Positions 1,795 to 59,006 of a stretch of DNA of 64,000 nt are shown in pieces. The stretch's first letter is position 1. Every line of letters starts with the position of its first letter. The DNA is from a phage, in NCBI GenBank assembly GCA_012401045.1, contig GCA_012401045.1_4704.2. One strand, given 5' to 3'. The translations under genes were made by a program, and so were the position numbers. The notes below the pieces were generated by a model. The model did no database searches. It saw nothing but the letters and a program-made list of their open reading frames with translations, and was not told where the DNA came from.

Positions 1795-1883
1795 TATCAC
1801 GGTGCCGGATGAATGTCCGGTGCAATGAAACCATCCGCAACGTTGTCATCAAGAATATCATCCAACGAAGCAGCTACGGTAGT

Positions 1884-4106
1884 TCAGTTAGTCTGAACCG
1901 GCAGCTTGATGTTTTCAGTGTAGACCTTACGCAGGTTCACAACGTTAATCAGACCCAGCAGCGGGCAGTTGTTAACGAAGCGGCAGCGCGGCTGAACCAT
2001 GGTTTCTTTAGAAACCTGACCGTTACGGGTAACCTGAGCAACAGATACCAGTTCCGGTACGTACAGGAACATACCGAAGGTCAGCGGATCCGGAGAACCC
2101 TGGATACCACGAGACAGGGTCACGAAGATCTTATCGCGCAGCATGACGTTCGGGTTATCTACAACCACGAAGTTGAAGCTTACACCGACGGTACGGAAAT
2201 CGCCATCGGTCTGCAGGAACTGCGGGATGTAGTTGTCAGTTGCTACTACGCAACGCGGTTTCTCATCGGCGTTGGAAGACAGCAGCTGCAGAGCTGGCTG
2301 ATAACCAGACTCGGAGTACATGCGGTATGCCATCTCACGAATCACGTTCATGATCGCAGCAGACACTTCAGCACGACGTTCTGCAGTGGTGGTACCCTGA
2401 ACAGATTTCTCCAGGTCCAGATTGATTTCTTCGAACCACGGACGGATCAGGTAACGACCGAAACCTTCGATCTGGATGTCACCGAACTGACGGAAGCGAG
2501 AGGTCGCAACCGCTTTCAGTGCGTCTTTGTAGCTGAACAGTTTCTCAACCATCAGGTTGTCGAAACGTGCGTTAGCAGCTTGGATCAGAACGTCCAGGTC
2601 AGCAGCGTTTTCTTCCCAATCCAGCGGACGAGGAATGGAGAACGGAGCCAGCAGGCCGATTGCGTAACGTTCTTGCTTCATGTTGAAGTCAAGGTGCTTA
2701 CCGCGTTCACGACGGTTGCTGTTGTTACGGCGGATACGCAGTTCGTAACCAACCAGTTTGAAGCTCAGGTCTTCAGCCAGTTGTTTGAACTCTTCGCTCT
2801 TACGCGGTTGTTCGATGTTGTCCTGATCAACCAGGCGATACAGTTCAGCGTTAGCGCCGTTAACACGCAGACCCGCTTTCTCTACGTTGGAAGAACCGTA
2901 AACTTCGATCGCCAGCTGAGCAGCAGATTTCGCATCGATGATGTCCTGCAGCGCTTCGGCTTTCGCACCTTTAACGTCTTTGGTGTTCTCATCAACGAAG
3001 ATGGAGTGGGTGTCGAACGCCAGGGTCATTTTGCGGAAGTCGCCTTCCAGGGATTTCTGGAAACCGTTGGTGATCAGACCAGATACGTCGAACGGTACGT
3101 AAGAGGTTTTGCTGTGCTTGGTAGATTTGATTTCCACCAGGATTTTGGTCAGCGTGATCTGGGCGTCCAGCGCGTCGGTGTTGTCGCTATAACCGTTAGC
3201 CAGGATGCTATCGTCTTCAGCGATACCGATCATGTCGATCAGTTTATCAACAGCCAGGTAAGACGTTTTATAAGTTACGCCTTTAATTTCGATGTCGCGC
3301 GGAGCAACGATAGCTTTGTCAACGAAGTACTGCGCGTTAGCATCGTCAGCACGATAGATCGGATGCAGATCGGTCACGTCGTTGGACAGAACGTCGTTGT
3401 ACATGAACGCATCCAGCAGCGGACGACGTACCCAATCAGCCGGAGTACCGTCGGCGTTACGACGCAGGTGGTTGAACACCAGCGGACGACGGAAAGATAC
3501 GTCGTAACCGATCTGGTTCGGAGCCAGAACGATGGTGTTGTACAGTTCGTTACCCATGCGGCTCAGACGAGAAGCCTTCACGTTGAACACAACGGAGTAC
3601 GGCATCATGTCACGCAGTTCTTTCTGGTCGTAGGACAGCTGAACCAGTTCTTCAGATTCGCAACCGCAGGAATCAGCAGCCATCATGACGAAGTTAGAGC
3701 TGTCAACTTCACGGCCAGACGGAGTGGTGCTGATGTTCATGGAACGTGCTTGTTTAGCATATTCCACCGGGTTACCATGAGCCAGCATGATCAGTGCTGC
3801 TGCACGAGCCTGCTGTGCGTTCATGGTGAACAGCTGTTCTTCAATACGCTGCTTCTCTTCCGGAGTGGTGGTTTCGAAGCCCAGCATGGACAGAACCGGT
3901 TCTTCTGCTTTACGGATGTCGCTGCTGAAGCTCTTAACATCCATTTCGTTAACCAGTTTGTCCATGGATTTGAAATCAACCTTAGAAGCAGATTCCATAG
4001 ACAGGAAGGTGTTCTCCAGACCTTTGTCTGCTGGTTTGCTACCATTAGCGGTCAGGAACTGGCGAGTGGCCGCGACCTGTTGGCTAAGAAGGGTTTTATC
4101 ATTCAT
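1884..4106 (-). CDS. putative major capsid protein (740 aa); tail sheath not excluded
   Basis: Long ORF with strongly host-optimal codon usage (cgt/ctg/ggt/aac/gaa), AAGGA RBS 8 nt before ATG, hairpin terminator downstream. Size matches major capsid proteins of phiKZ-like phages. No homology search run. Confidence 0.45.
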   Translation of the reverse strand: MNDKTLLSQQVAATRQFLTANGSKPADKGLENTFLSMESASKVDFKSMDKLVNEMDVKSFSSDIRKAEEPVLSMLGFETTTPEEKQRIEEQLFTMNAQQARAAALIMLAHGNPVEYAKQARSMNISTTPSGREVDSSNFVMMAADSCGCESEELVQLSYDQKELRDMMPYSVVFNVKASRLSRMGNELYNTIVLAPNQIGYDVSFRRPLVFNHLRRNADGTPADWVRRPLLDAFMYNDVLSNDVTDLHPIYRADDANAQYFVDKAIVAPRDIEIKGVTYKTSYLAVDKLIDMIGIAEDDSILANGYSDNTDALDAQITLTKILVEIKSTKHSKTSYVPFDVSGLITNGFQKSLEGDFRKMTLAFDTHSIFVDENTKDVKGAKAEALQDIIDAKSAAQLAIEVYGSSNVEKAGLRVNGANAELYRLVDQDNIEQPRKSEEFKQLAEDLSFKLVGYELRIRRNNSNRRERGKHLDFNMKQERYAIGLLAPFSIPRPLDWEENAADLDVLIQAANARFDNLMVEKLFSYKDALKAVATSRFRQFGDIQIEGFGRYLIRPWFEEINLDLEKSVQGTTTAERRAEVSAAIMNVIREMAYRMYSESGYQPALQLLSSNADEKPRCVVATDNYIPQFLQTDGDFRTVGVSFNFVVVDNPNVMLRDKIFVTLSRGIQGSPDPLTFGMFLYVPELVSVAQVTRNGQVSKETMVQPRCRFVNNCPLLGLINVVNLRKVYTENIKLPVQTN

Positions 4107-4255
4107 TGAAAGTATCCTTTACAGAATTAACTTATATAAGTCGGTCGATAGACCATAGCGTACACGCGTGCATGCGCCACTATAGTATCAGTAAACACTT
4201 ACCGTTATTGAGGTCGTGATACAACACTAAAAATGCCGCATAACTTTTCCCTACG

Positions 4256-6530: not shown

Positions 6531-6590
6531 AAAAAAAAAAAAAGATTGTACGGTTCCCTCCTCCAACCCGTAAGGGAAGGAGGAAGGTTT
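6531..6590. terminator. bidirectional intrinsic terminator (A13 run plus CCCTCCTCC...GGAGGAAGG hairpin) between convergent genes
   Basis: Hairpin flanked by a 13-nt A run on plus strand (T run for minus-strand transcripts). Confidence 0.7.
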
Positions 6591-9930: not shown

Positions 9931-9975
9931 GCATAAGCCCTCTCCCAACCCGTAAGGGAAGGGAGAGGGAATATT
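9931..9975 (-). terminator. hairpin of the GCATA-CCCTCTCCC...GGGAGAGGG family
   Basis: Abuts stop of 9974..11341. Confidence 0.55.
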
Positions 9976-21161: not shown

Positions 21162-21209
21162 GCCATAAACCTTCCTCCAACCCAACAGGGAAGGAGGAAG
21201 GGATATGGT
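21162..21209 (-). terminator. hairpin of the CCTTCCTCC...GGAGGAAGG family
   Basis: Downstream of 21212..22501; two further short palindromes at ~21089-21110 and ~21117-21138 in the same spacer. Confidence 0.55.
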
Positions 21210-23867: not shown

Positions 23868-23913
23868 GCATAGAACCCTCTCCCAACCCGTCAGGGAAGG
23901 GAGAGGGGATATG
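23868..23913 (-). terminator. hairpin of the CCCTCTCCC...GGGAGAGGG family
   Basis: Downstream of the highly expressed gene 23930..25252. Confidence 0.55.
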
Positions 23914-32144: not shown

Positions 32145-32189
32145 GCATAACCCTCCTCCAACCCAACAGGGAAGGAGGAGGGAATATGC
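32145..32189. terminator. bidirectional hairpin terminator (CCCTCCTCC...GGAGGAGGG) between convergent genes
   Basis: Located between stop of 29136..32129 (+) and stop of 32192..34984 (-). Confidence 0.6.
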
Positions 32190-32191
32190 TG

Positions 32192-34984
32192 TTATCTTAC
32201 GTTATTGCTGTTCTGCTGTTCGCTGAACCAACTGTACACCTTGAGATCGGTACCGTATTTCAATGCGATATACGCATTCAGCGCAGCACAGAACAAAGAC
32301 GCGAATGCCCATATCAGCGAAGGATCAACATCTTCCGTTACCACCTGGAGAGTATTATCCGGTTCCCATGATGGAGAACTGTCCATGAACGTCGTGTACC
32401 ATTCCCGCCGTTGTTCTTCGGTGGTAAAGTCGCTATGAGGTTCCAACGCTTCTTTTGCCAGACGTCGATATTCGAACATATGCGTTGCTAAAGCCGACGA
32501 GTTACCAGATTCGCCTTCATAGTTCGGATCCACCGCATAACAGAGTTCTGTTGAATCCAACAAAGCAATCGCTTGTGTGATGCTGTCGGCAGTGCCTGCA
32601 CCATAAAGCTCGATAGACCGCGAAAGCTTTTCACAGAACGCATTTAACGCGGAAGGATTGGACACCTGAAGGTCAAGGCCTAATGTCCACGGATAGTTAC
32701 TGAATACGCCCGTAAACCGCGGCATAACACCCAACAGATGTTGTCCGATTACAGCACGGTTATAAACAGCCCGGTTATAGACTTGAAACGCAGCCTCCAA
32801 AGCTTGGTTATAATGACGACGAAGTTCGTCACGCGAGTTGCGGAATCTGTTTGCCGCAAGACTTGTGGCTGCGACGCTACAAACATCGTAATTGGTGGAC
32901 GAGAGCACAGTTTCGTTAAGATCGAACGATTCCTGTTTCAACGATCCGCTAACCGCTGCTGCTTCGCTGTTTGCTTTATCGACAACAGTACTCAAAGCGT
33001 TGATGTAACGTTTAGCTCGGACTTCCAGCCATTGTGCGATACCGAGAATATCCACCGCGGCTTTAGCAAGATCGCGTGCATTCACGATTTCGTTCTTCAA
33101 CGCCCCTAAACCTTTATTTTCAGGCAATGAGGCTTGTTGACGAATCATGCTGTTCAACATGGTAAGCAGATTATCCAACTCATGTCCACTGACCTTGTTA
33201 CGTGCATCGGTAATAGGACCTTGCAGGAATTTACGGCAACCATCGTTGTATCGAATCAGTTTATCCACATCGATAGATTCGTTCGTGGATTCCTTGAACT
33301 GATTCTTCAATTCTTCACGGTAGTCATGGATTTCACTTGCGAGATTATCGATAGTGATACCATCATATCCAAGAAGAACTTTATTGAAGTTACCTTTCTC
33401 GAATGCAAGAGCAAGACCTTCACGAATCTTAGCGAGTTTGTCCTGATCAAGTTCACGACCGTTCGATAGCTCTTTCACTTCCGAGCTGATTAATGCCGAA
33501 ACGTTACCCAGATTGTCGGTAACTCCTTTGAACGCTCCCGACCAGATCGTTCCTGCTTCAGCGTATTTCGCAATGGTCTGAATACCGACGGTATGCAACG
33601 ACGCTAAACGTTTCTTCGTGCCTTCGGTAAGCAGTGCGTCTTTAGCTCGCGTAAGTTGACTGTTATTAGCTTCCGCTTGCTGGATTGCTGCTTTCGCACT
33701 TCCATTACGCCAGCTCTTAACTAACCAATCAACCAAACGTTTTAGGATGTTGACGGTGTATTCCATTGTCCGCCGTAACGTTTCCCACGCGCTTTCTGCG
33801 GTATAAATGCCGTACCCTTCCATCTTCGTTGGGTCAAAGAAACCTTCCTGCACGAGATCAGTACGTGTGTAGCCATCAGCAGCTTCTACTTCCGCCTGGG
33901 TTTTATCCCAGAAGTCGTCGCTCTTTGCAGCAATCGCTGTATCTTTAACGTCCAGGATGATCTGACCAACCGTTTGTGCAAACAGCAAGGCCGCACGTAC
34001 CGATTGTGCGAACATCCGCTGATATTTGATTCGAACGCATTGCATCTGGGTTAGCAGATTCAGTTGTGCGATCCCATCCAAGGTGCTATCCTGAGCAAGC
34101 CCTTCGGCTTTAGTGATAACCTGTTTTACACGTTCAGCGACATCACCGTACTGCTGGCAAACATCTCGCAGAATACGTGCCGCGAAGACCCCGGTACCGA
34201 TATAGTTCAATAGGTCTTTTAACGACCATTCGGTCGGACAATCGGTCGGCGCAATAGGGAGTAAGCAACCATCACCGTCCATGAATCTCTCTAATGCGCT
34301 AATATCCTGATTTTCTACGCTCATGGGGATATCGACATCAGCCGCTTGCAGATCCAGCATCTGTTGTAGGATGTTGGTATCGGCTTGTACAAGCGTCACA
34401 AGCGCTTGGCTGTGTGCGATTATTGGTAACGCAGGTGACCATACTGCAGCAAGCTTGTCGGCGTGACGTTGAATGGCATACCCCATATCCTCGATCACAT
34501 CGGGATGCTCGATAACCCCCTGAAGCGTTTGATGTAGCTCACCGAGTTGCTGAGACAGATCGACCATCATGGTGTTGAAGGTTTCACCATCCTCTTTGTG
34601 GTTGTCCAGACGCTCGAGTTCATGTCGAAGCAATGTAACGAGCTGTCCGTTGCCTTCTTGCTTCAGCTTGCTTTCCATTAACGTAATGGCTTTATCGACG
34701 ATCTGACACGCTTCACGAAAACCGGTTGTGGAAGGAAGCTCTGTCCATAACGCCAACGGTTTACCGTCAAGGGCTTCCGGCATCGATAAAGAAAGCATAG
34801 ACAGTTGTTGACGTGATACTTGCTGTTCACGGTGTAATGTTTCTTTTAACGCCAGGAGATCGTCAAGAAACGCGCCGTTAAGGGTGGTCGTACGCGGTGT
34901 TGAATTAATACCGTCAGTTAACGATTCAAGCACCAGGAGACCGTTATCAGCTGAAGAGAGTCCCGCGGCAAGATATTTGTTCAT
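32192..34984 (-). CDS. large hypothetical protein (~930 aa)
   Basis: Track ORF extends to GTG at 35041 through a perfect 12-bp-stem hairpin; first ATG is codon 20 with GGAG RBS. Confidence 0.7.
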   Translation of the reverse strand: MNKYLAAGLSSADNGLLVLESLTDGINSTPRTTTLNGAFLDDLLALKETLHREQQVSRQQLSMLSLSMPEALDGKPLALWTELPSTTGFREACQIVDKAITLMESKLKQEGNGQLVTLLRHELERLDNHKEDGETFNTMMVDLSQQLGELHQTLQGVIEHPDVIEDMGYAIQRHADKLAAVWSPALPIIAHSQALVTLVQADTNILQQMLDLQAADVDIPMSVENQDISALERFMDGDGCLLPIAPTDCPTEWSLKDLLNYIGTGVFAARILRDVCQQYGDVAERVKQVITKAEGLAQDSTLDGIAQLNLLTQMQCVRIKYQRMFAQSVRAALLFAQTVGQIILDVKDTAIAAKSDDFWDKTQAEVEAADGYTRTDLVQEGFFDPTKMEGYGIYTAESAWETLRRTMEYTVNILKRLVDWLVKSWRNGSAKAAIQQAEANNSQLTRAKDALLTEGTKKRLASLHTVGIQTIAKYAEAGTIWSGAFKGVTDNLGNVSALISSEVKELSNGRELDQDKLAKIREGLALAFEKGNFNKVLLGYDGITIDNLASEIHDYREELKNQFKESTNESIDVDKLIRYNDGCRKFLQGPITDARNKVSGHELDNLLTMLNSMIRQQASLPENKGLGALKNEIVNARDLAKAAVDILGIAQWLEVRAKRYINALSTVVDKANSEAAAVSGSLKQESFDLNETVLSSTNYDVCSVAATSLAANRFRNSRDELRRHYNQALEAAFQVYNRAVYNRAVIGQHLLGVMPRFTGVFSNYPWTLGLDLQVSNPSALNAFCEKLSRSIELYGAGTADSITQAIALLDSTELCYAVDPNYEGESGNSSALATHMFEYRRLAKEALEPHSDFTTEEQRREWYTTFMDSSPSWEPDNTLQVVTEDVDPSLIWAFASLFCAALNAYIALKYGTDLKVYSWFSEQQNSNNVR

Positions 34985-34999
34985 AAAACACTCCGTTGG

Positions 35000-35030
35000 C
35001 CTAGGGGAAGGCTGAAAACCTTCCCCTAGG
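35000..35030 (-). terminator. perfect palindrome CCTAGGGGAAGG-ctgaaaa-CCTTCCCCTAGG (12-bp stems)
   Basis: Sits between stop of 35044..37839 and ATG 34984 of the next gene. Confidence 0.45.
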
Positions 35031-35043
35031 GTTATAAACACAA

Positions 35044-37839
35044 TTAAGCTAATTTACCGAAACCGGCTTTCTGCAGTTTCTCGTTGATGATTTTCGCTTC
35101 AGCGAAGACGTAATCACGATACGCAGTGACTAATCCGTCCACCCGTGAACGCAAGGCTTCTTCGAAGCTATACCACGCAGCGATTTCACGAATCTGTGCG
35201 TTGATATAATCAACGGTTGAGCGAAGCTCGGTTGCGTTTTCTTGCGGAATGGCTTTCACCTGGCGAGCAACGTCATTTAAACGACGGAACTGTGTTTCGA
35301 TTTCTTTAAACTTACTGTCGGCAAGTTTGCTGAATTCGTCACCAGAACGGGTAAATAACAGATAGCTGTTGCCGTCAAGTGCGGTCGCTAACTGCTGAAG
35401 TACGTTGGTGTCCGGATACACAGGAGTACCGCTTTGCAGTACTTTCTCACCGAATTCCGCGAAGTCCTTCGGTGGTAAGTGTGCAGACGTTGTCAATTCG
35501 TTGAAACGGAAAGTCAGCGAATTATCATACAGCATCCGGTACGCTTCCATACCCTGTTTCATGGTACCGGCCAGGTTAGCCAGACGCGGAGCAATCTCGC
35601 CTTCTTTAGCGCGTTTCTGGTCTTCTAACGCCCCTTCGAGTTCTTTACACTGGTCGTTCAGATACACGATACGATCAGGACGTAGACGACGCATCTCACG
35701 AAGAATAGTATCCAGCTTACCTTCCTGGAAATAACCCAACGTTAAAGACGTACACGCTTGCTGAAGACGATCGAACACCGGTAAGGTTACCATCTCCTTA
35801 CGGATACCATCAACAATCGCAGAAACAGCCGAAAGTTTCTGTTCTGTAGTCAATGGAACATCAGAGGCCGACTTGCTGGGTGCACCAACAACGTTACGCA
35901 TTGCGTCGGTATCCTCGGTTTTATCAACCTCTTTACGAACATGCTCATCAGGAACATAAACGTTCGCGTTACGTTTCGCCTGCTTGATGGCGTCGTTGGC
36001 CGCTTTTTCGGTGGCTGCTACGCTATCAGCACGTTTCTTCAAGAGTTCAATAATCCAGAGCAACAGACGACGAATCGCAGTATAGGCCGTCGTGATGATG
36101 ACACCGATAACAGCCATCTTCATGATACCGAACGATTCCATGGTCGGCTCTAACGCTTGGTCTGGCATATACCGTTCACGCAGCTCCAGATAGATCTGCT
36201 CATCTGGTTTGCTGACCTCACCACGATGCGAAGTACGATAGATGGCTTCGTCAATCTCAACAAGATCTTTGCGGGCCTGGCGATCGGATTCTGTTAAGTA
36301 AGCACAACCGGATACGTCGTCTTCGAAGCTTAAGAATTTGAAAAAGTCACTGACGTCGATCTTGATCTTCTTCGCTTCATTATCGACATCGATAACATCT
36401 TTTTTCTGTGCCTGATATTCCGCTTTGATGTCGTTCACCGGCTTCAACGCACGTTCTTTTAATGCCTGCACGATCTGTTTCCAGTCGGCGTCACGCTCAA
36501 GAACAAGGAAGTAATTCTTGAGTTCAAAAGCACGGTAACGCGCAACGAGTTGTTCTACCTGAATATGAGCGAGTTGCACATCCATCAGCCAACGCGACAT
36601 TGCTGAGATCAAACGGCTATAAGCAAGCAATGTCTGATATGTTAGCTTCATGTGCTTTTCGTACAGCTCAATATCGCCGTCTTGAATATCAGCCGTTGGG
36701 TTCATTTCCTTCGTTGCTTTGAAGATCTGTTCGGCCTCATTTAACGTTTGTTCGAATTTGACTTCATTAAACGTGTCAAACGGTTCAGCCAACTCCATCA
36801 TTCGATCGTGAAGCTCACGAACCCAGGCTTCCTTATTGTTGCGAATAGCTGCGTCATCGTGAAGTTCAGTTTGATGTTTCTGTACCCATTCTTCGACGAT
36901 ATCAGCGGCGGCAACAATTCCTGTACCATCGGAAACTAACGGAACAACTCCAGCAAGTACGCCTACACACGCCGGGGTTTTCCAATAATCGTTCAAAGCG
37001 TTTCTGAATTCAACGATGGATTGTACGTTTGGTACCGTATCCAAAAACGTACTGCCGTTACGGCTCATTGTCGTTACGATATCAGCGAATTCCTTCTGCT
37101 TAGCGGTAACAAAAGGAACCAGGACCATAAGCCATTCAGCAACCGACTTCGCTTTCTCTTTCAGATTTTTGTCAGCGATTTCCTTAAGGTTTATCGCACC
37201 ACCGTAACCTGCAAGCTCTTTATATACGTCGCTAAGGGTCATCTGTTTATCCAACATTTCTTTGAAACGTGGGTAATCAGCACCTAACGCATCGACAATA
37301 TCGTTGATTACGTCATCAGTTGTTGCGATAAACTTCTTCGTATCAACGTTTGAATATTTCCAGACGTATCGTACTGCTTTCTTGATTCCTGCAAAGATAA
37401 ACGCCCAGATACGCTTGATGAGTTCCCAGACTTTCTTCGCGCCATCGACAAACAGTTTAGAGACCTTGGCAACGAATCCTTCCTGCACCAATTCAACGCC
37501 GTTACGTGATGGGATTTCCGTGAAGAAAGCATCCGGCAGTTGTTTCGGGAATGCGTCACCAAGACGCATACGCAGTTCCGGTACATCAGCACGAGAAATA
37601 CCGCGTGTTACTAATTGTTCGTGAAGACGAACGTTTTCTTCACCAGAGGTCACGAATTCGTCAACATCGAAGGAGACCATTGTTTCCTGATCTTCGGTGG
37701 TAACGACGCTTGAACCATCACTGGTTTGGATGTCTTCGTCAGGGAATGCCATGAGCATACCGTGACGCATTTCAACCACCCCGTAATCGGTTGCTAAACC
37801 GAATTCGTTGTGGTCTGGGGTAATAACTGGGATACTCAT
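35044..37839 (-). CDS. large acidic head-type protein (931 aa), distant member of the paralog family, with one internal hydrophobic helix
   Basis: AAGGAGA RBS; N-terminal acidic region plus LVQEGF motif and amphipathic helix (WELIKRIWAFIFAGIKK) as in the 19762-25252 family. Confidence 0.7.
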   Translation of the reverse strand: MSIPVITPDHNEFGLATDYGVVEMRHGMLMAFPDEDIQTSDGSSVVTTEDQETMVSFDVDEFVTSGEENVRLHEQLVTRGISRADVPELRMRLGDAFPKQLPDAFFTEIPSRNGVELVQEGFVAKVSKLFVDGAKKVWELIKRIWAFIFAGIKKAVRYVWKYSNVDTKKFIATTDDVINDIVDALGADYPRFKEMLDKQMTLSDVYKELAGYGGAINLKEIADKNLKEKAKSVAEWLMVLVPFVTAKQKEFADIVTTMSRNGSTFLDTVPNVQSIVEFRNALNDYWKTPACVGVLAGVVPLVSDGTGIVAAADIVEEWVQKHQTELHDDAAIRNNKEAWVRELHDRMMELAEPFDTFNEVKFEQTLNEAEQIFKATKEMNPTADIQDGDIELYEKHMKLTYQTLLAYSRLISAMSRWLMDVQLAHIQVEQLVARYRAFELKNYFLVLERDADWKQIVQALKERALKPVNDIKAEYQAQKKDVIDVDNEAKKIKIDVSDFFKFLSFEDDVSGCAYLTESDRQARKDLVEIDEAIYRTSHRGEVSKPDEQIYLELRERYMPDQALEPTMESFGIMKMAVIGVIITTAYTAIRRLLLWIIELLKKRADSVAATEKAANDAIKQAKRNANVYVPDEHVRKEVDKTEDTDAMRNVVGAPSKSASDVPLTTEQKLSAVSAIVDGIRKEMVTLPVFDRLQQACTSLTLGYFQEGKLDTILREMRRLRPDRIVYLNDQCKELEGALEDQKRAKEGEIAPRLANLAGTMKQGMEAYRMLYDNSLTFRFNELTTSAHLPPKDFAEFGEKVLQSGTPVYPDTNVLQQLATALDGNSYLLFTRSGDEFSKLADSKFKEIETQFRRLNDVARQVKAIPQENATELRSTVDYINAQIREIAAWYSFEEALRSRVDGLVTAYRDYVFAEAKIINEKLQKAGFGKLA

Positions 37840-38276
37840 GCATTCTCTCCTTGCAGTGCGTTAGCGAAAGCCGTTGCGAGTTGCGCAACCAGCTTAGGAT
37901 CAACACCTTCGATAACGTCGGGCAGCCCTGCGGTTTCTTGGTCACGAACGGCGGAGGCTAATAACAGCATGGTTTCAGGTGCGGTCGGCTCATGCACCAT
38001 GCGGTAACGCAGGCACCAGAAGTAGCGGGCAACGTCTAACGCATCGGCCAGCCCAATAACCAGTACCTTGTTCAGCTTATCCAGCCCTTCACGGATTTTA
38101 GGGAGATGTTCGCGAACGAAAATGCTATCTGCGGTCAGATCTTCTTTTTCAGCGAATACGGGCATGCTGTAACCAGCGATATAACCTGCGGCAATACTTA
38201 GCGCACGGGTCTGTTGTTCGGCTGGGAAATCACGTACCAGGTCTTTCAGCTGAACGGCGAAATCAGAAATATTCAT
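37836..38276 (-). CDS. hypothetical protein (146 aa)
   Basis: AAAGGA RBS; overlaps downstream start by 4 nt. Confidence 0.65.
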   Translation of the reverse strand: MNISDFAVQLKDLVRDFPAEQQTRALSIAAGYIAGYSMPVFAEKEDLTADSIFVREHLPKIREGLDKLNKVLVIGLADALDVARYFWCLRYRMVHEPTAPETMLLLASAVRDQETAGLPDVIEGVDPKLVAQLATAFANALQGENA

Positions 38277-38308
38277 GTTAAATTCCTTTATAGTAAAAAT
38301 AGAAGAGA

Positions 38309-39619
38309 TTAGGCGATAATGGAGTCAAGAGTCGCTGCGGTTTTGAACAGATCGTTGTTCATTGTAGAAGAAAGGACTTGCTGAATTTCTTCCTGTTTAA
38401 CCGCTTTACGAACCCCAGGACGAAGGATAAGCGTAACCATCTGTGAAAAGGTACGATTATTGTTCATCGCACTCAGCGTTTCATCGATTGTTTTGATGGC
38501 ATCCAGCGTCATGGAACGAACATCGCTTGGGATATCACGATCTTTCAAGCGTATAATTAAATCTTGTTTGATTTTACGGAATCGTTCCATGTCGTTATCG
38601 TAAATGCTGTATGTCGGATCTAACCAAACAGAAAGCGCGGTTACAGCGACAACAACCAACACGCCGATAGCACCAACAGAAGCTAAACCTATCGCCATCA
38701 TAGAAGCTATAGTAGCATCCATGATGAAGGAGAGCCAGAACATCGTTTTGGACTTCACGGAGTCTTTGCTATAAAGCCGATACATTTTAGCAAGCCCGCT
38801 AACGAGATACTCCCCACCGCCATGACGCGTAGCGAACTGATCAGCCATGAATTCGGAAGCAACGTCGGTATATCGTCCAGCGTTGTTTACGTTTCTTAAC
38901 TGCATCGCTCTGTTAGACACGTAAACCGTGTACCAGACACTACCGTCGTCTGAATCACTGATTTTGTCTACGTCGACGTTGGTATCCAACGTTTTGTTTA
39001 ACGCTTTCGCCAGTTCGATACGTTTTACCTTATCGGTTGTCCCCAACAGTTCACGCTGTACGGTCATGATTGAGGCTTCGACACGAACCGTTTCCGACAA
39101 TGTTTCAAGGAAGGTAAATGCGTGCCCGATTTCATGCAGCATTATGGCTGCTTTTTCTTCCGGAAGAAAGGGTTCTGTCGCCGTTAGCAGTTCATACGTG
39201 ATGGCAGAACGAATCTTCAATTCTTCAAAAATACCGTAAACACGACCTTTTTCTAAATCGACGTAACCGACAGGTGTATCTTTAATCTTCTTAAGGAGCG
39301 TAACACCATCAGCACCGCGCATCCATAACCGATGATAGTCTGCCAGGATTGTGTTGTTTGTCGAAATATCCGGCGGGTACACGTAGGCATTCATCCGGCC
39401 CATTTTCACGTCGACCGAGAATTCGATGTTCAACCCCGTATAGCGTTTAACCATCTCGGTTAAACGACCGTCCTTGAAAACGTTTAAAACCTCTTTTTTA
39501 TCCAGTCCCTGTTTGCTTCTGAAGAACTCGGTCATTTCCTTGAACAAGGAACCATCTTGAAACTTGATGGCCTCCATCGTTAATTCGTCATGACCATACA
39601 CGCGTTGTAGTAATGACAT
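38309..39619 (-). CDS. putative membrane-anchored zinc metallopeptidase (HExxH; 436 aa)
   Basis: Motif AIMLHEIGHAF (HExxH) mid-protein; two hydrophobic helices near C-terminus; GAGAG RBS; perfect 18-bp palindrome just upstream of RBS. Confidence 0.5.
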   Translation of the reverse strand: MSLLQRVYGHDELTMEAIKFQDGSLFKEMTEFFRSKQGLDKKEVLNVFKDGRLTEMVKRYTGLNIEFSVDVKMGRMNAYVYPPDISTNNTILADYHRLWMRGADGVTLLKKIKDTPVGYVDLEKGRVYGIFEELKIRSAITYELLTATEPFLPEEKAAIMLHEIGHAFTFLETLSETVRVEASIMTVQRELLGTTDKVKRIELAKALNKTLDTNVDVDKISDSDDGSVWYTVYVSNRAMQLRNVNNAGRYTDVASEFMADQFATRHGGGEYLVSGLAKMYRLYSKDSVKSKTMFWLSFIMDATIASMMAIGLASVGAIGVLVVVAVTALSVWLDPTYSIYDNDMERFRKIKQDLIIRLKDRDIPSDVRSMTLDAIKTIDETLSAMNNNRTFSQMVTLILRPGVRKAVKQEEIQQVLSSTMNNDLFKTAATLDSIIA

Positions 39620-39630
39620 TGTACACTCTC

Positions 39631-39648
39631 TAAATTTACGTAAATTTA
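39631..39648. promoter_or_regulatory. perfect 18-bp palindrome TAAATTTACGTAAATTTA upstream of the HExxH protease gene
   Basis: Located ~12-30 nt upstream of the start codon, in the divergent region with the DNA polymerase fragment gene. Confidence 0.35.
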
Positions 39649-39840
39649 AGGGCTAATGGATCGGCTGGCCGCACCAATCACAATGTGTCCGCTGCTATGC
39701 AACGGCATTCATAGAAATACCTTTTGACGGTAACATCACCGTTCATACCCCAAGCAATAAGAGTGGTCGGTTAAAAACAACAGAACGTGGGGATGATATA
39801 GAAAATCACCTTTTAACACTTATTACGAGTTTATCAAGCC

Positions 39841-41592
39841 ATGAGCGAACAAGAACGAAAACCTAAGAAGAAACTGCTCGGTATTCAATGTCGACACATC
39901 AGCTATAACGAAGCGAACGATGGCAGCAAGAACGACCTCATGATCGCAAAAGAGATCATGTTCTTTGATGACAATACGCAAGCGACGAACCTTCGCTTCT
40001 TTGAGAATTACAAACGTCCGTTTTGGGTGACGGTAGAGAGTAAACGTAAGAACAAATATAAAAAGGAAAGCGAGAAGCTCTCGCATGTGCGTCGCTACGA
40101 TGTCCGCCAAAGCGAACTGGTTGAAAAGATCAGCTCGGTACTTTATAAAAGACGTGCTGACGATAACACCCGTTTACAGCAGCTTGCACGGAGTCCATAC
40201 CTCTATGGAACGGACGTTAGCGCCAGCTGTTATTTAAAAACCCAGTACAACACAAAATGGCCGGAATACGTCGATAAATTACCCGCTTCCATTGCCTGTT
40301 TCGATATCGAAACCGACGTTGTCCACGGACACGGTAAGATCGTTTGTATGTCTATTACAATGGGATACAATGCGATACTTTGCTATACCAAGGACTTCGT
40401 TGGTCATATTCCGAATGCCATTGAGAAAACCCATGAGAAGATTCGATATTACCTGGCCGAACGTCTGAATACCAAAGAAGATCCCCACGCATTCGAAAAA
40501 TATCAGTACGATGTTCGAATCGTAGAAAGCCCGGCACAAGCGGTCATCCAATGCATGCAGAAGGTTCACGAATGGCAGCCGGATTATCTCCTTGGCTGGA
40601 ATATCGCGTTCGATATTCCGCGCATGCTCCAGGCACTGAACGAGGAAGGGTATCGTCCCGAGGATGTTTTCTCCGATCCCCGTATACCACCTAAATATCG
40701 TATTGCTCGCTGGGTACCACCGAAGACCGACAAGGTATCTGCTTCAGGTCGTAAAACCAACCTTACCCTTGAGCAAACCTGGCCGATGTTTTATACGATG
40801 GCTACGTATCAGGTTATGGATGCGATGTGTGGCTATAAGTTCGTTCGTTTAGGAAGACCGGATGAAGGACGCTATTCACTCGATGCGGTGTTAGAGCGAA
40901 ATAAATGCCATACGAAATTAAAAGCTATTCCTGGTACAGAGGGGTTCACGGAGCTTGCCTGGCACGAAGAGATGCAAACGAACCATCAAATCGACTACGG
41001 CGTATATAACCTTTGGGATAACCAGGGTATTGAGGCGTTGGACCAGAAAACAAAAGACTATTCGATGACCATCCCTATCCGTTTAGCGGCGTCGGATTTG
41101 AAAGATTTCAGTTCTAACCCTAAACGTATCTGCGATAAACTTTTCTTCGTTTATCTTAACCGTGGGGAAGTCATGGGATGTACCGCTGACGACATGACCC
41201 AGGAAGAAGATAAGTGGGTTATCTCACGAGCTGGACATATCGTCACATTACCATGCGATCTCATGGCTGACAACGGCATTCATCTCTTCTGGGATATGCC
41301 GAACCTGAGAAGTTATATCCGTCTATTCGTTGCAGACCTTGACATTAGCAGTTCATACCCGAATGGGCAGATCCTGTTGAATCTATCCAGAGCGTGTGTT
41401 TTTCGCGAGCTCTCACGCATTGAGGGCGTCTCTGACTATCAATTCAGGAAGTTAGGTATCAACTTTATTACCGGAGGTAAAACGAACGCTGTAGACTTCT
41501 GTAGAATCGTTTATAAAGCACCATCGATGTTTGAACTTTTAGAACATTTCGATGCAACGCGTCCAAAAGAGGAAGCGCGGACCATCGAATGA
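39841..41592 (+). CDS. family-B DNA polymerase N-terminal fragment: 3'-5' exonuclease domain plus polymerase motif A
   Basis: Exo I FDIETD, Exo II WNIAFD, Exo III YNLWD, then DISSSYP matching motif A (DxxSLYPS); ORF ends ~80 aa later with no motif B or C. Confidence 0.6.
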   Translation: MSEQERKPKKKLLGIQCRHISYNEANDGSKNDLMIAKEIMFFDDNTQATNLRFFENYKRPFWVTVESKRKNKYKKESEKLSHVRRYDVRQSELVEKISSVLYKRRADDNTRLQQLARSPYLYGTDVSASCYLKTQYNTKWPEYVDKLPASIACFDIETDVVHGHGKIVCMSITMGYNAILCYTKDFVGHIPNAIEKTHEKIRYYLAERLNTKEDPHAFEKYQYDVRIVESPAQAVIQCMQKVHEWQPDYLLGWNIAFDIPRMLQALNEEGYRPEDVFSDPRIPPKYRIARWVPPKTDKVSASGRKTNLTLEQTWPMFYTMATYQVMDAMCGYKFVRLGRPDEGRYSLDAVLERNKCHTKLKAIPGTEGFTELAWHEEMQTNHQIDYGVYNLWDNQGIEALDQKTKDYSMTIPIRLAASDLKDFSSNPKRICDKLFFVYLNRGEVMGCTADDMTQEEDKWVISRAGHIVTLPCDLMADNGIHLFWDMPNLRSYIRLFVADLDISSSYPNGQILLNLSRACVFRELSRIEGVSDYQFRKLGINFITGGKTNAVDFCRIVYKAPSMFELLEHFDATRPKEEARTIE

Positions 41593-53859: not shown

Positions 53860-53905
53860 ACATAACCCTCCTCCAACCCGTAAGGGAAGGAGGAGGGCTT
53901 ATGCT
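53860..53905. terminator. bidirectional hairpin (CCCTCCTCC aacccgtaaggg AAGGAGGAGGG) between convergent genes
   Basis: Between stop of macro-domain gene (+) and stop of 53907..54281 (-). Confidence 0.6.
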
Positions 53906-58963: not shown

Positions 58964-59006
58964 GCCATAGCAGCTCCTCCAACCCGTCAGGGAAGGAGGA
59001 GCATAC
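58964..59006 (-). terminator. hairpin (GCTCCTCC aacccgtcaggg AAGGAGGAGC) downstream of lipoprotein gene
   Basis: Loop sequence identical or near-identical to other family members. Confidence 0.55.

Follow-up and report, generated by a model that had tools for sequence, protein, structure and literature searches.

The chimallivirus core gene cg22 encodes a conserved virion protein of phiKZ-like jumbo phages, which the searched literature treats only as a "virion structural protein". In the supplement of Prichard et al. 2023, Goslar gp067, phiKZ gp084 and RAY gp286 are equated as cg22, and the gene is listed without an asterisk, that is, as not limited to chimallin-encoding phages; the record of PhiPA3 equates its gp086 with phiKZ gp84, 201phi2-1 gp145 and EL gp052. 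The phiKZ record describes gp84 as a structural head protein, and that of Escherichia phage vB_EcoM_Goslar, a nucleus-forming jumbo phage of E. coli, labels gp067 a "hypothetical protein". Searches of the literature on gp84, M48 or metalloproteases in jumbo phages turned up no functional study, and the papers searched are silent on any peptidase function of this gene. The subject here is the cg22 gene on a phage DNA of 64,000 nucleotides (nt), the window in what follows (NCBI GenBank assembly GCA_012401045.1, contig GCA_012401045.1_4704.2). Judged from sequence profiles and a predicted fold, its product is very probably an M48-like zincin, with H162, H166 and E256 as predicted zinc ligands and E163 as the predicted catalytic base.

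That the gene is the Goslar-group ortholog of cg22 (phiKZ gp84) is strongly supported. Positions 38000-41000 of the window are 93.9% identical in nt to Goslar, and the encoded protein shares 91% of its amino acids (aa) with gp067, matches PHROG 2767 (E 9e-83), finds phiKZ gp84 (E 1e-25) and SPN3US gp45 (E 7e-26) by BLASTP, and is homologous over its full length to the family. Gene order is the same in the window, Goslar, PhiPA3 and SPN3US: cg22 and the DNA polymerase subunit gene cg21 are divergently arranged, and the gp85 and gp86 orthologs come after cg22; in phiKZ, gp83 is interposed. Relatives were found by tblastn in 243 phage records, every one a jumbo phage, with hosts including Pseudomonas, Erwinia, Salmonella, Serratia, Ralstonia, Vibrio, Klebsiella and others; most are labeled "virion structural protein", a few "peptidase", "putative M48 family lipoprotein protease" or "beta-barrel assembly-enhancing protease". 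A family profile run against 1.84 billion cluster representatives retrieved at least 1760 clusters at 50% identity (E <= 1e-30), nearly all of them 410-455 aa long. The gene and the parts of its product that bear on catalysis are as follows.

38309..39619, minus strand: coding sequence of the peptidase gene, 436 aa, ATG start; ortholog of Goslar gp067, phiKZ gp84, SPN3US gp45 and PhiPA3 gp086 (cg22)
38765..39571, minus strand: catalytic domain (aa ~17-285), predicted M48-like zincin fold with beta-sheet, HExxH helix and ligand helix
39122..39136, minus strand: HEIGH (H162 E163 I G165 H166), two predicted zinc ligands and the predicted catalytic base; invariant in the alignment
38819..38854, minus strand: E256-F-M-A-D260-Q-F-A-T-R-H-G267, predicted helix of the third zinc ligand, E-x-x-A-D

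A first-pass annotation, made from the sequence alone, had proposed a membrane-anchored HExxH metallopeptidase of 436 aa. Its protein and motif are borne out: HEIGH occupies residues 162-166 of the product of the minus-strand open reading frame (ORF) 38309..39619, which begins MSLLQRVYGHDELTMEAIKFQ; the coding part of the interval first assigned to the gene stops at 39619, and 39620-39648 hold leader and a palindrome. Across 41 aligned relatives, with 21-92% identity to the window protein, only eleven columns are invariant, among them H162, E163, G165, H166, E256, D260 and G267, while F262 and R265 are kept in at least 90% of the sequences. The active site presumably works, because H162, E163, H166, E256 and D260 have stayed invariant while the rest drifted to 21-30% identity.

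The relation to M48 emerges at the level of the family. PF01435 (Peptidase_M48) is matched, weakly, by 24/41 relatives (best E 2.5e-5), and the HtpX and LoiP models of NCBIfam reach at best E 0.001, in one or two family members. When the family profile was compared with PDB sequences, human ZMPSTE24 was aligned twice, at its HExxH helix (HELGH) and at 412-RRFEFQADAFAKKLG; the latter (R412-RFEFQAD) lies opposite E256-F-M-A-D260-Q-F-A-T-R-H-G, and E415 in it is the third zinc ligand of ZMPSTE24. By hhalign, E. coli HtpX is aligned over the HExxH helix (HEISH in HtpX) with a probability of 77.5%. An AlphaFold2 (AF2) model built from the alignment has a mean predicted local distance difference test score (pLDDT) of 78 and a predicted template modeling score (pTM) of 0.79; searched with Foldseek against the predicted viral structures of BFVD, it matches a "Zincin protease" of Bacillus phage AR9 and proteins named "Peptidase M48 domain-containing protein" and "Beta-barrel assembly-enhancing protease", all in the E range 1.6e-6 to 7e-5. 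The family shows HExxH on the active-site helix, a predicted Glu ligand in E-x-x-A-D and a predicted catalytic fold of the M48 type.

Two results speak against the assignment: the window protein itself has no match to PF01435 in Pfam at E <= 10, and Foldseek of the model against the PDB returned nothing significant, the best M48 match having a probability of 0.38. The window protein also stays below the curated M48 thresholds of Pfam and NCBIfam, and searches of Pfam, PHROGs and NCBIfam with the single protein gave no functional name. A profile search for M48 upholds the metallopeptidase of the first-pass annotation through the family-level matches to PF01435 and ZMPSTE24, though not through the window protein alone. 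We conclude that the family is best described as a divergent, M48-like sister family, not as a curated member of M48, with its predicted active site kept intact.

Packaging, processing and the hydrophobic hairpin

Three further parts of the protein lie on either side of the catalytic domain.

39572..39619, minus strand: 16-aa N-terminal propeptide (codons 1-16) of the capsid-targeting type, ending T-M-E16 / A17
38621..38752, minus strand: hydrophobic helical hairpin (aa ~290-333), predicted to insert into membranes; a mosaic of discrete alleles
38312..38602, minus strand: C-terminal helical domain (aa 340-436) with conserved Y340, D341, R346, K359 and N422-x-L-F425; helices at 343-435 in the AF2 model

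The evidence for processing comes from the Goslar ortholog, which is 91% identical to the window protein and has the same first 34 residues. According to Table S4 of a 2026 bioRxiv paper on the Goslar structure, gp067 (YP_009820752.1) is present in CsCl-purified virions, where mass spectrometry (MS) covered 46.8% of its sequence with 19 peptides and led to an estimate of ~48 copies in each virion (range 32-76); the protein lies outside the atomic model. The published MS data include the tryptic peptide that carries HEIGH, AAIMLHEIGHAFTFLETLSETVR, and a semi-tryptic peptide assigned to gp067, AIKFQDGSLFKEMTEFFR, which begins with A17 after E16, not a trypsin site. T-M-E16 / A17 together with the peptide starting at A17 is therefore as expected if the prohead protease, which cuts at S/A/G-X-E sites, removes the first 16 aa as a propeptide; in the Goslar ortholog both the cut after Glu in a small-X-Glu site, as made by phiKZ-type prohead proteases, and the mature N-terminus are seen. 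E16 is kept in at least 90% of the 41 relatives, with S, G, A or T at P3 in most and A or S at P1'. The tryptic peptide of the unprocessed protein spanning the junction was not found in the part of the Goslar MS file that was searched; to be set against the cleavage is that the A17 peptide is a single spectrum of moderate score. SPN3US gp45 is reported to have a 20-residue propeptide resembling the capsid-targeting sequence (CTS) of T4 and to be the only head protein of that phage with a short one (PMC5694885). Trimming at a site of the prohead-protease type means that the protein enters the prohead as a precursor and is trimmed inside. It is strongly supported that the protein is made as a precursor, enters the prohead, loses a propeptide of 16 residues and stays in the mature virion at tens of copies.

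The first-pass annotation had further noted two C-terminal hydrophobic helices; the two helices are real and conserved in position, but they are not C-terminal, as a conserved helical domain of ~100 aa comes after them. By the Kyte-Doolittle scale a hydrophobic stretch of ~35-45 residues is found at the same position in 40/41 relatives, with 19-residue means of up to 2.6, and the AF2 model has helices at 291-313 and 317-332. In sequence the stretch is preceded by Lys and followed by Arg/Lys, with an uncharged turn; this would suit a helical hairpin with both flanking domains on one face of a membrane. We know of no characterized M48 enzyme with this order of domains (catalytic, hairpin, helical C-terminal). 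When the AF2 model was compared with the PDB by Foldseek, faint and non-significant matches (E 1.9-3.6) to the alpha-pore-forming toxins AhlC, AhlB and MakB were also seen; these toxins conceal a hydrophobic helical hairpin until membrane contact, which offers a lead as to how a protein with a hairpin might be stored in soluble form in a capsid.

Nowhere in the gene are variation and recombination greater than in the hairpin. Between the window and Goslar, 39/90 nt of codons 301-330 differ, 19/30 codons non-synonymously, against ~5% in the rest of the gene. Among close relatives the segment (window ~38627-38725, codons ~299-331) occurs as discrete alleles, which are shuffled independently of a nearby patch (SKDSV vs GTNSM); this pattern points to patchy recombination, not gradual drift, and the recombining alleles may hint at a host-facing surface. 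Exchange on a larger scale is seen in locus L005 (protein P0016; L-numbers denote loci compared with the window): over the polymerase gene, the spacer and ~100 nt at the start of the peptidase gene it shares 97% identity with the window, and from the last ~150 nt of the peptidase gene onward identity is 88%. Between them lies a gene body of ~1.05 kb (window 38464-39517; L005 4104-5164) without detectable nucleotide similarity. P0016 is 48% identical in aa to the window protein overall, with the catalytic residues kept; this is an allele swap within the peptidase gene with conserved ends.

The transcription unit and the role of the protein

The window gene had been placed at the head of a minus-strand block of large head-type genes. 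It does head a unit of virion-protein genes, but the block is mixed, with two genes for the inner-capsid vertex complex and one for an unmodeled virion protein.

37836..38276, minus strand: 146-aa gene, ortholog of Goslar gp066 / phiKZ gp85, inner-capsid vertex-binding-complex protein; collinear with Goslar, 93%
35044..37839, minus strand: 931-aa gene, ortholog of Goslar gp065 / phiKZ gp86, vertex-binding-complex protein, 55 copies modeled
32192..35041, minus strand: 949-aa gene, ortholog of Goslar gp064, unmodeled virion protein, ~110 copies estimated
32151..32182, minus strand: G+C-rich hairpin, member of a repeated family, directly 3' of the stop codon of the gp064 ortholog

The G+C-rich hairpin at 32151-32182 is the probable end of a four-gene unit; that the peptidase gene heads this unit, and that the next two products form the inner-capsid vertex-binding complex, is strongly supported. 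The Goslar cryo-electron microscopy (cryoEM) paper places this complex (gp066/gp85 and gp065/gp86) on the inner face of every non-portal vertex and describes an unassigned helical-bundle density adjoining gp65.

Three roles had been suggested for the protease, namely virion maturation, lysis and cleavage of a host factor. Lysis is unlikely, since purified virions contain the Goslar ortholog and the protein undergoes trimming at a prohead-protease-type site, which places it inside the prohead. The role that we favor, tentatively and short of calling it probable, is that of an ejected effector protease which inserts into a membrane. The protein would be carried in the head in soluble form with its hairpin shielded, and would leave the head with the DNA and other ejected proteins; the hairpin would then enter a membrane of host origin, either the inner membrane or that of the early-infection vesicle, both flanking domains remaining on one face. 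Tethered there, the protease might cut unfolded or membrane-proximal proteins of the host, or co-ejected ones, early in infection, and the removal of the propeptide may double as zymogen activation. Cellular M48 enzymes act at membranes, and this habit speaks for such a role, as do the hairpin conserved in position and free in sequence, its mosaic alleles, a propeptide like those of the T4 internal proteins, and the precedents of SPN3US gp47 and phage N4 (see below).

Several points have to be set against ejection. The phiKZ proteins shown to be injected are gp90, 92, 93, 95, 97 and 174, and gp84 is not among them; some head proteins stay behind, namely gp89 and gp162, although gp84 is not among these either. 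Gene order and copy number suit a vertex-associated protein resident in the capsid equally well, and the family reaches AR9-type phages, so that a role tied to vesicle or nucleus is not required. Transposon sequencing in phiKZ yielded 0 filtered insertions in orf84, which suggests that the role of the protein matters for infectivity; however, orf85-86 also lack insertions and yet can be deleted, and the orf84 result may be a polar effect. As a whole, the account of a packaged and trimmed M48-like protease that is ejected and inserts into a membrane, with a palindrome in the leader of its gene, is the best explanation we have, and we hold it with slightly less than even confidence.

It is possible, if rather doubtful, that the protease never leaves the capsid and works close to the vertex-binding complex on the inside, with ~5 copies at each non-portal vertex. 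It would act in maturation and might, for instance, break down the large fragments of propeptides and scaffold that the prohead protease releases, to peptides able to leave the shell, its hairpin serving as a protein-protein contact. The gene is co-transcribed with gp066/gp85 and gp065/gp86, and Goslar, phiKZ and PhiPA3 all keep this gene order; the estimate of ~48 copies (32-76) would accommodate 55, the AF2 model consists mostly of long helices, as might suit the helical-bundle density by gp65, and the protein is inside the prohead while the prohead protease acts; moreover, propeptides of ~125 residues need disposal in these phages (PMC5694885). Such label-free copy estimates are rough, however, as ~1000 copies were estimated for gp066 against 110 modeled, and the structure of the phiKZ vertex complex comprises seven proteins, gp84 not among them. 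A capsid-resident role also leaves unexplained why a membrane-like stretch of 35-45 residues should keep one position in 40/41 relatives while its sequence is freely exchanged, and every mapped cleavage in these heads is explained by the motif of the prohead protease alone (PMC5694885).

A narrower form of the favored role, in which the injected effector sits in the membrane of the early-infection vesicle and its proteolysis builds or remodels the vesicle, or opens it for hand-over of the genome to the chimallin nucleus, appears quite unlikely; a strictly nucleus- or vesicle-tied role is disfavored because relatives occur in AR9-type phages. It seems less likely still that the protein acts at the membrane of the producer cell before packaging, for instance in tethering or nucleating proheads at the inner membrane, its presence in virions being a by-product. 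Chimallivirus capsids reportedly assemble at the inner membrane, M48 enzymes are typically membrane-associated, and hairpin and head-gene context would agree with this; but a number of ~50 copies per virion, together with a dedicated propeptide that the prohead protease removes, indicates that the protein is placed in the interior on purpose, and it has no signal peptide or N-terminal anchor. That it is a structural protein which retains a zincin fold and has lost enzyme function, as the label "virion structural protein" in most records might suggest, is highly improbable given that H162, E163, H166, E256 and D260 are invariant across 41 sequences otherwise drifted to 21-30% identity.

A probably active (to go by its conserved residues), membrane-competent zinc protease in the head would be a concrete enzyme for two open questions, that is, the roles of packaged non-structural proteins on entry, including the making and resolving of the early membrane vesicle, and the clearance of bulky cleaved propeptides from maturing heads.

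The divergent spacer and other features of the window

Upstream of the peptidase gene the following elements are found.

39626..39630, minus strand: ribosome-binding site GAGAG, 6 nt before the ATG; invariant in 8 loci
39631..39648, no strand assigned: perfect 18-bp palindrome TAAATTTACGTAAATTTA, 0 mismatches, 11 nt before the ATG
39689..39706, minus strand: small hairpin directly after TATG, with a 7-bp stem and a 3-nt loop in the window
39710..39713, minus strand: TATG, candidate late-promoter/start motif of the non-virion RNA polymerase (nvRNAP); the leader starting here would be ~91 nt long and contain the palindrome

As the first-pass annotation stated, the palindrome is perfect and lies just upstream of the ribosome-binding site, directly preceding GAGAG on the coding strand, and the region is shared with a divergent DNA polymerase gene, from which it is a spacer of 221 nt (39841..41592, plus strand; PHROG 3011, E 7.8e-178). 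Further copies did not turn up: the window holds none at up to 3 mismatches and the whole 237-kb Goslar genome none at all, the nearest match there having 5 mismatches; the half-site AAATTTAC is not enriched (3 found vs 3.8 expected). Perfect palindromes of at least 18 bp number 4 in the Goslar genome, compared with ~1.0 in block shuffles, and ~0.28 are expected by chance per 64-kb window; the existence of the palindrome alone is only weakly unusual. It is invariant in 8/8 Goslar-group loci compared. In L004, the most diverged of these, ungapped columns of the remaining spacer show 81% identity, so that the probability of 18/18 identities is ~0.02; the conserved run also takes in the ribosome-binding site. 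L014 and L015 (~1480-1490) carry a 4-nt insertion, TAAA, immediately upstream of the palindrome, with the 18 bp intact. No equivalent palindrome is found upstream of the orthologs of phiKZ, PhiPA3 and SPN3US.

A 26-nt block, AAGGTATTTCTATGAATGCCGTTGCA, which lies ~91 nt upstream of the ATG and is conserved in L004, contains TATG, and the late-promoter consensus of phiKZ is T(-3)ATG(+1) (PMC7598289). Upstream of their orthologs phiKZ and PhiPA3 have ATCTTTATGATTA in common, and TATGAATG also occurs upstream of the Goslar head-protease gene gp212. A scan of the spacer for sigma-70 promoters found none, as is expected because the phage does not use the host RNA polymerase. If transcription starts at TATG, the palindrome is in the leader; the 5' leader of the four-gene unit is its most likely place. 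The hairpin that follows TATG has a different 7-bp stem and a 5-nt loop in L004 (3908-3926, GCCGTTG-CAGCA-CAACGGC); a 5'-terminal stem-loop seems to be maintained despite the changed sequence. The spacer also contains a direct repeat, AAAAGGT(G)A(A)TTTCTAT, twice and 89 nt apart (39711-39725 and 39798-39814, minus strand), which occurs nowhere else in the Goslar genome and of which both copies lie in blocks conserved in L004.

The palindrome is a gene-specific element limited to the Goslar genus, which may act either on the DNA, as a site for a dimeric protein, or on the RNA, as a weak all-A-U hairpin beside the ribosome-binding site. Two other readings were rejected: a stable RNA structure, as the putative 5' leader folds no better than shuffled sequences (z = 0.12), and a general promoter element, given a half-site that is not enriched and one copy per genome. 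The suggestion that it is an operator, at which a dimeric DNA-binding protein controls the four-gene unit and/or the divergent polymerase gene, we consider unlikely. Perfect dyad symmetry, invariance in 8 loci even with TAAA inserted alongside, and a spacer built of conserved blocks including the direct repeat favor it; but the site occurs once, nothing else in the 237 kb resembles it at 4 mismatches or fewer, half-sites are not enriched, other genera (phiKZ, PhiPA3, SPN3US) lack it, its conservation is inseparable from that of the adjoining ribosome-binding site, chance is not negligible (~0.28 per window; P ~0.02 for the conservation), and no candidate binding protein was identified. The palindrome alone adds little to the significance of the locus.

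A genome-wide k-mer search for an AT-rich early-promoter motif like the half-site found none; instead, a family of G+C-rich hairpins surfaced, CCCTCCTCCTTCCC-loop-GGGTTGGAGGAGGG, with seven copies in the window, all intergenic, on the minus strand and just after minus-strand genes.

6563-6580, 9945-9962, 21177-21194, 23883-23900, 32158-32175, 53873-53890, 58979-58996, minus strand: copies of the G+C-rich hairpin; 0.01 copies expected by chance

The copies at 9945 and 32158, the two that were read out, are followed by TTATGC, which contains TATG. These hairpins look like a terminator family and are possibly terminator-promoter cassettes.

The DNA polymerase subunit gene of the window is uninterrupted (583 aa), while those of Goslar, L004 and L005 carry an insertion with an HNH homing endonuclease gene, 1.78 kb in Goslar; the insertion site is at 41336-41356 in the window (12339-14119 in L001). 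The Goslar insertion matches the group I intron family RF00028 (E 1.2e-9), its 44.7 bits falling short of the gathering score of 50. In the window phage the polymerase gene is an intron-less allele. Elsewhere in the window two long ORFs overlap on opposite strands, 1809-4109 (plus, 766 aa) and 1884-4106 (minus, 740 aa). The latter agrees with the Goslar major head protein gp041 in position and length, a match by these two properties only, and the plus-strand ORF is presumably a shadow ORF.

Comparison with known systems

The nearest relatives of the window gene, Goslar gp067, phiKZ gp84, SPN3US gp45, PhiPA3 gp086 and 201phi2-1 gp145, agree with it in length, motifs and genomic position. It differs from these cg22 orthologs in the allele of its hairpin segment, and in some relatives the gene body has been exchanged as a whole; compared with other cg22 genera, only the Goslar group has the palindrome.

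Structural similarity over the whole length extends to the "zincin protease" paralogs of AR9 and to M48-domain proteins of metagenomic Myoviridae in BFVD (E 1.6e-6 to 7e-5), at 12-17% identity to the model and TM-scores of 0.37-0.47; these come from jumbo phages that also have virion and non-virion multisubunit RNA polymerases.

Compared with the M48 enzymes HtpX, Ste24/ZMPSTE24, Oma1, BepA and LoiP, the window protein is without N-terminal transmembrane segments and without a signal or lipoprotein sequence; it has neither the 7-helix chamber of Ste24 nor the tetratricopeptide repeat (TPR) domain of BepA. In HtpX a hairpin is located between HExxH and the third ligand, whereas that of the window protein comes after the third ligand. 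The window family has an additional C-terminal helical domain and, to judge from the Goslar ortholog, is packaged in a virus head and trimmed by the prohead protease.

For delivery, precedents exist by feature. The C1 domain in the C-terminal region of the N4 virion RNA polymerase (vRNAP) has HExxH and is packaged in the head and delivered with the DNA (PMC13434306); the same holds for SPN3US gp47, which has a predicted transmembrane helix (PMC5694885). They are parallels by feature to the window protein, for whose family ejection is proposed.

What was already known is a catalogued core family of jumbo-phage virion proteins, relatives of which are labeled zincin or M48 peptidase in some records. 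Added here is the combination of an intact M48-like site, trimming by the prohead protease, presence in virions at tens of copies, a hydrophobic hairpin with another domain after it, and a gene linked to those of the vertex complex; these five features together are not discussed in the searched literature. The first-pass annotation read a real gene correctly, and the gene is a good experimental lead, not a new kind of system.

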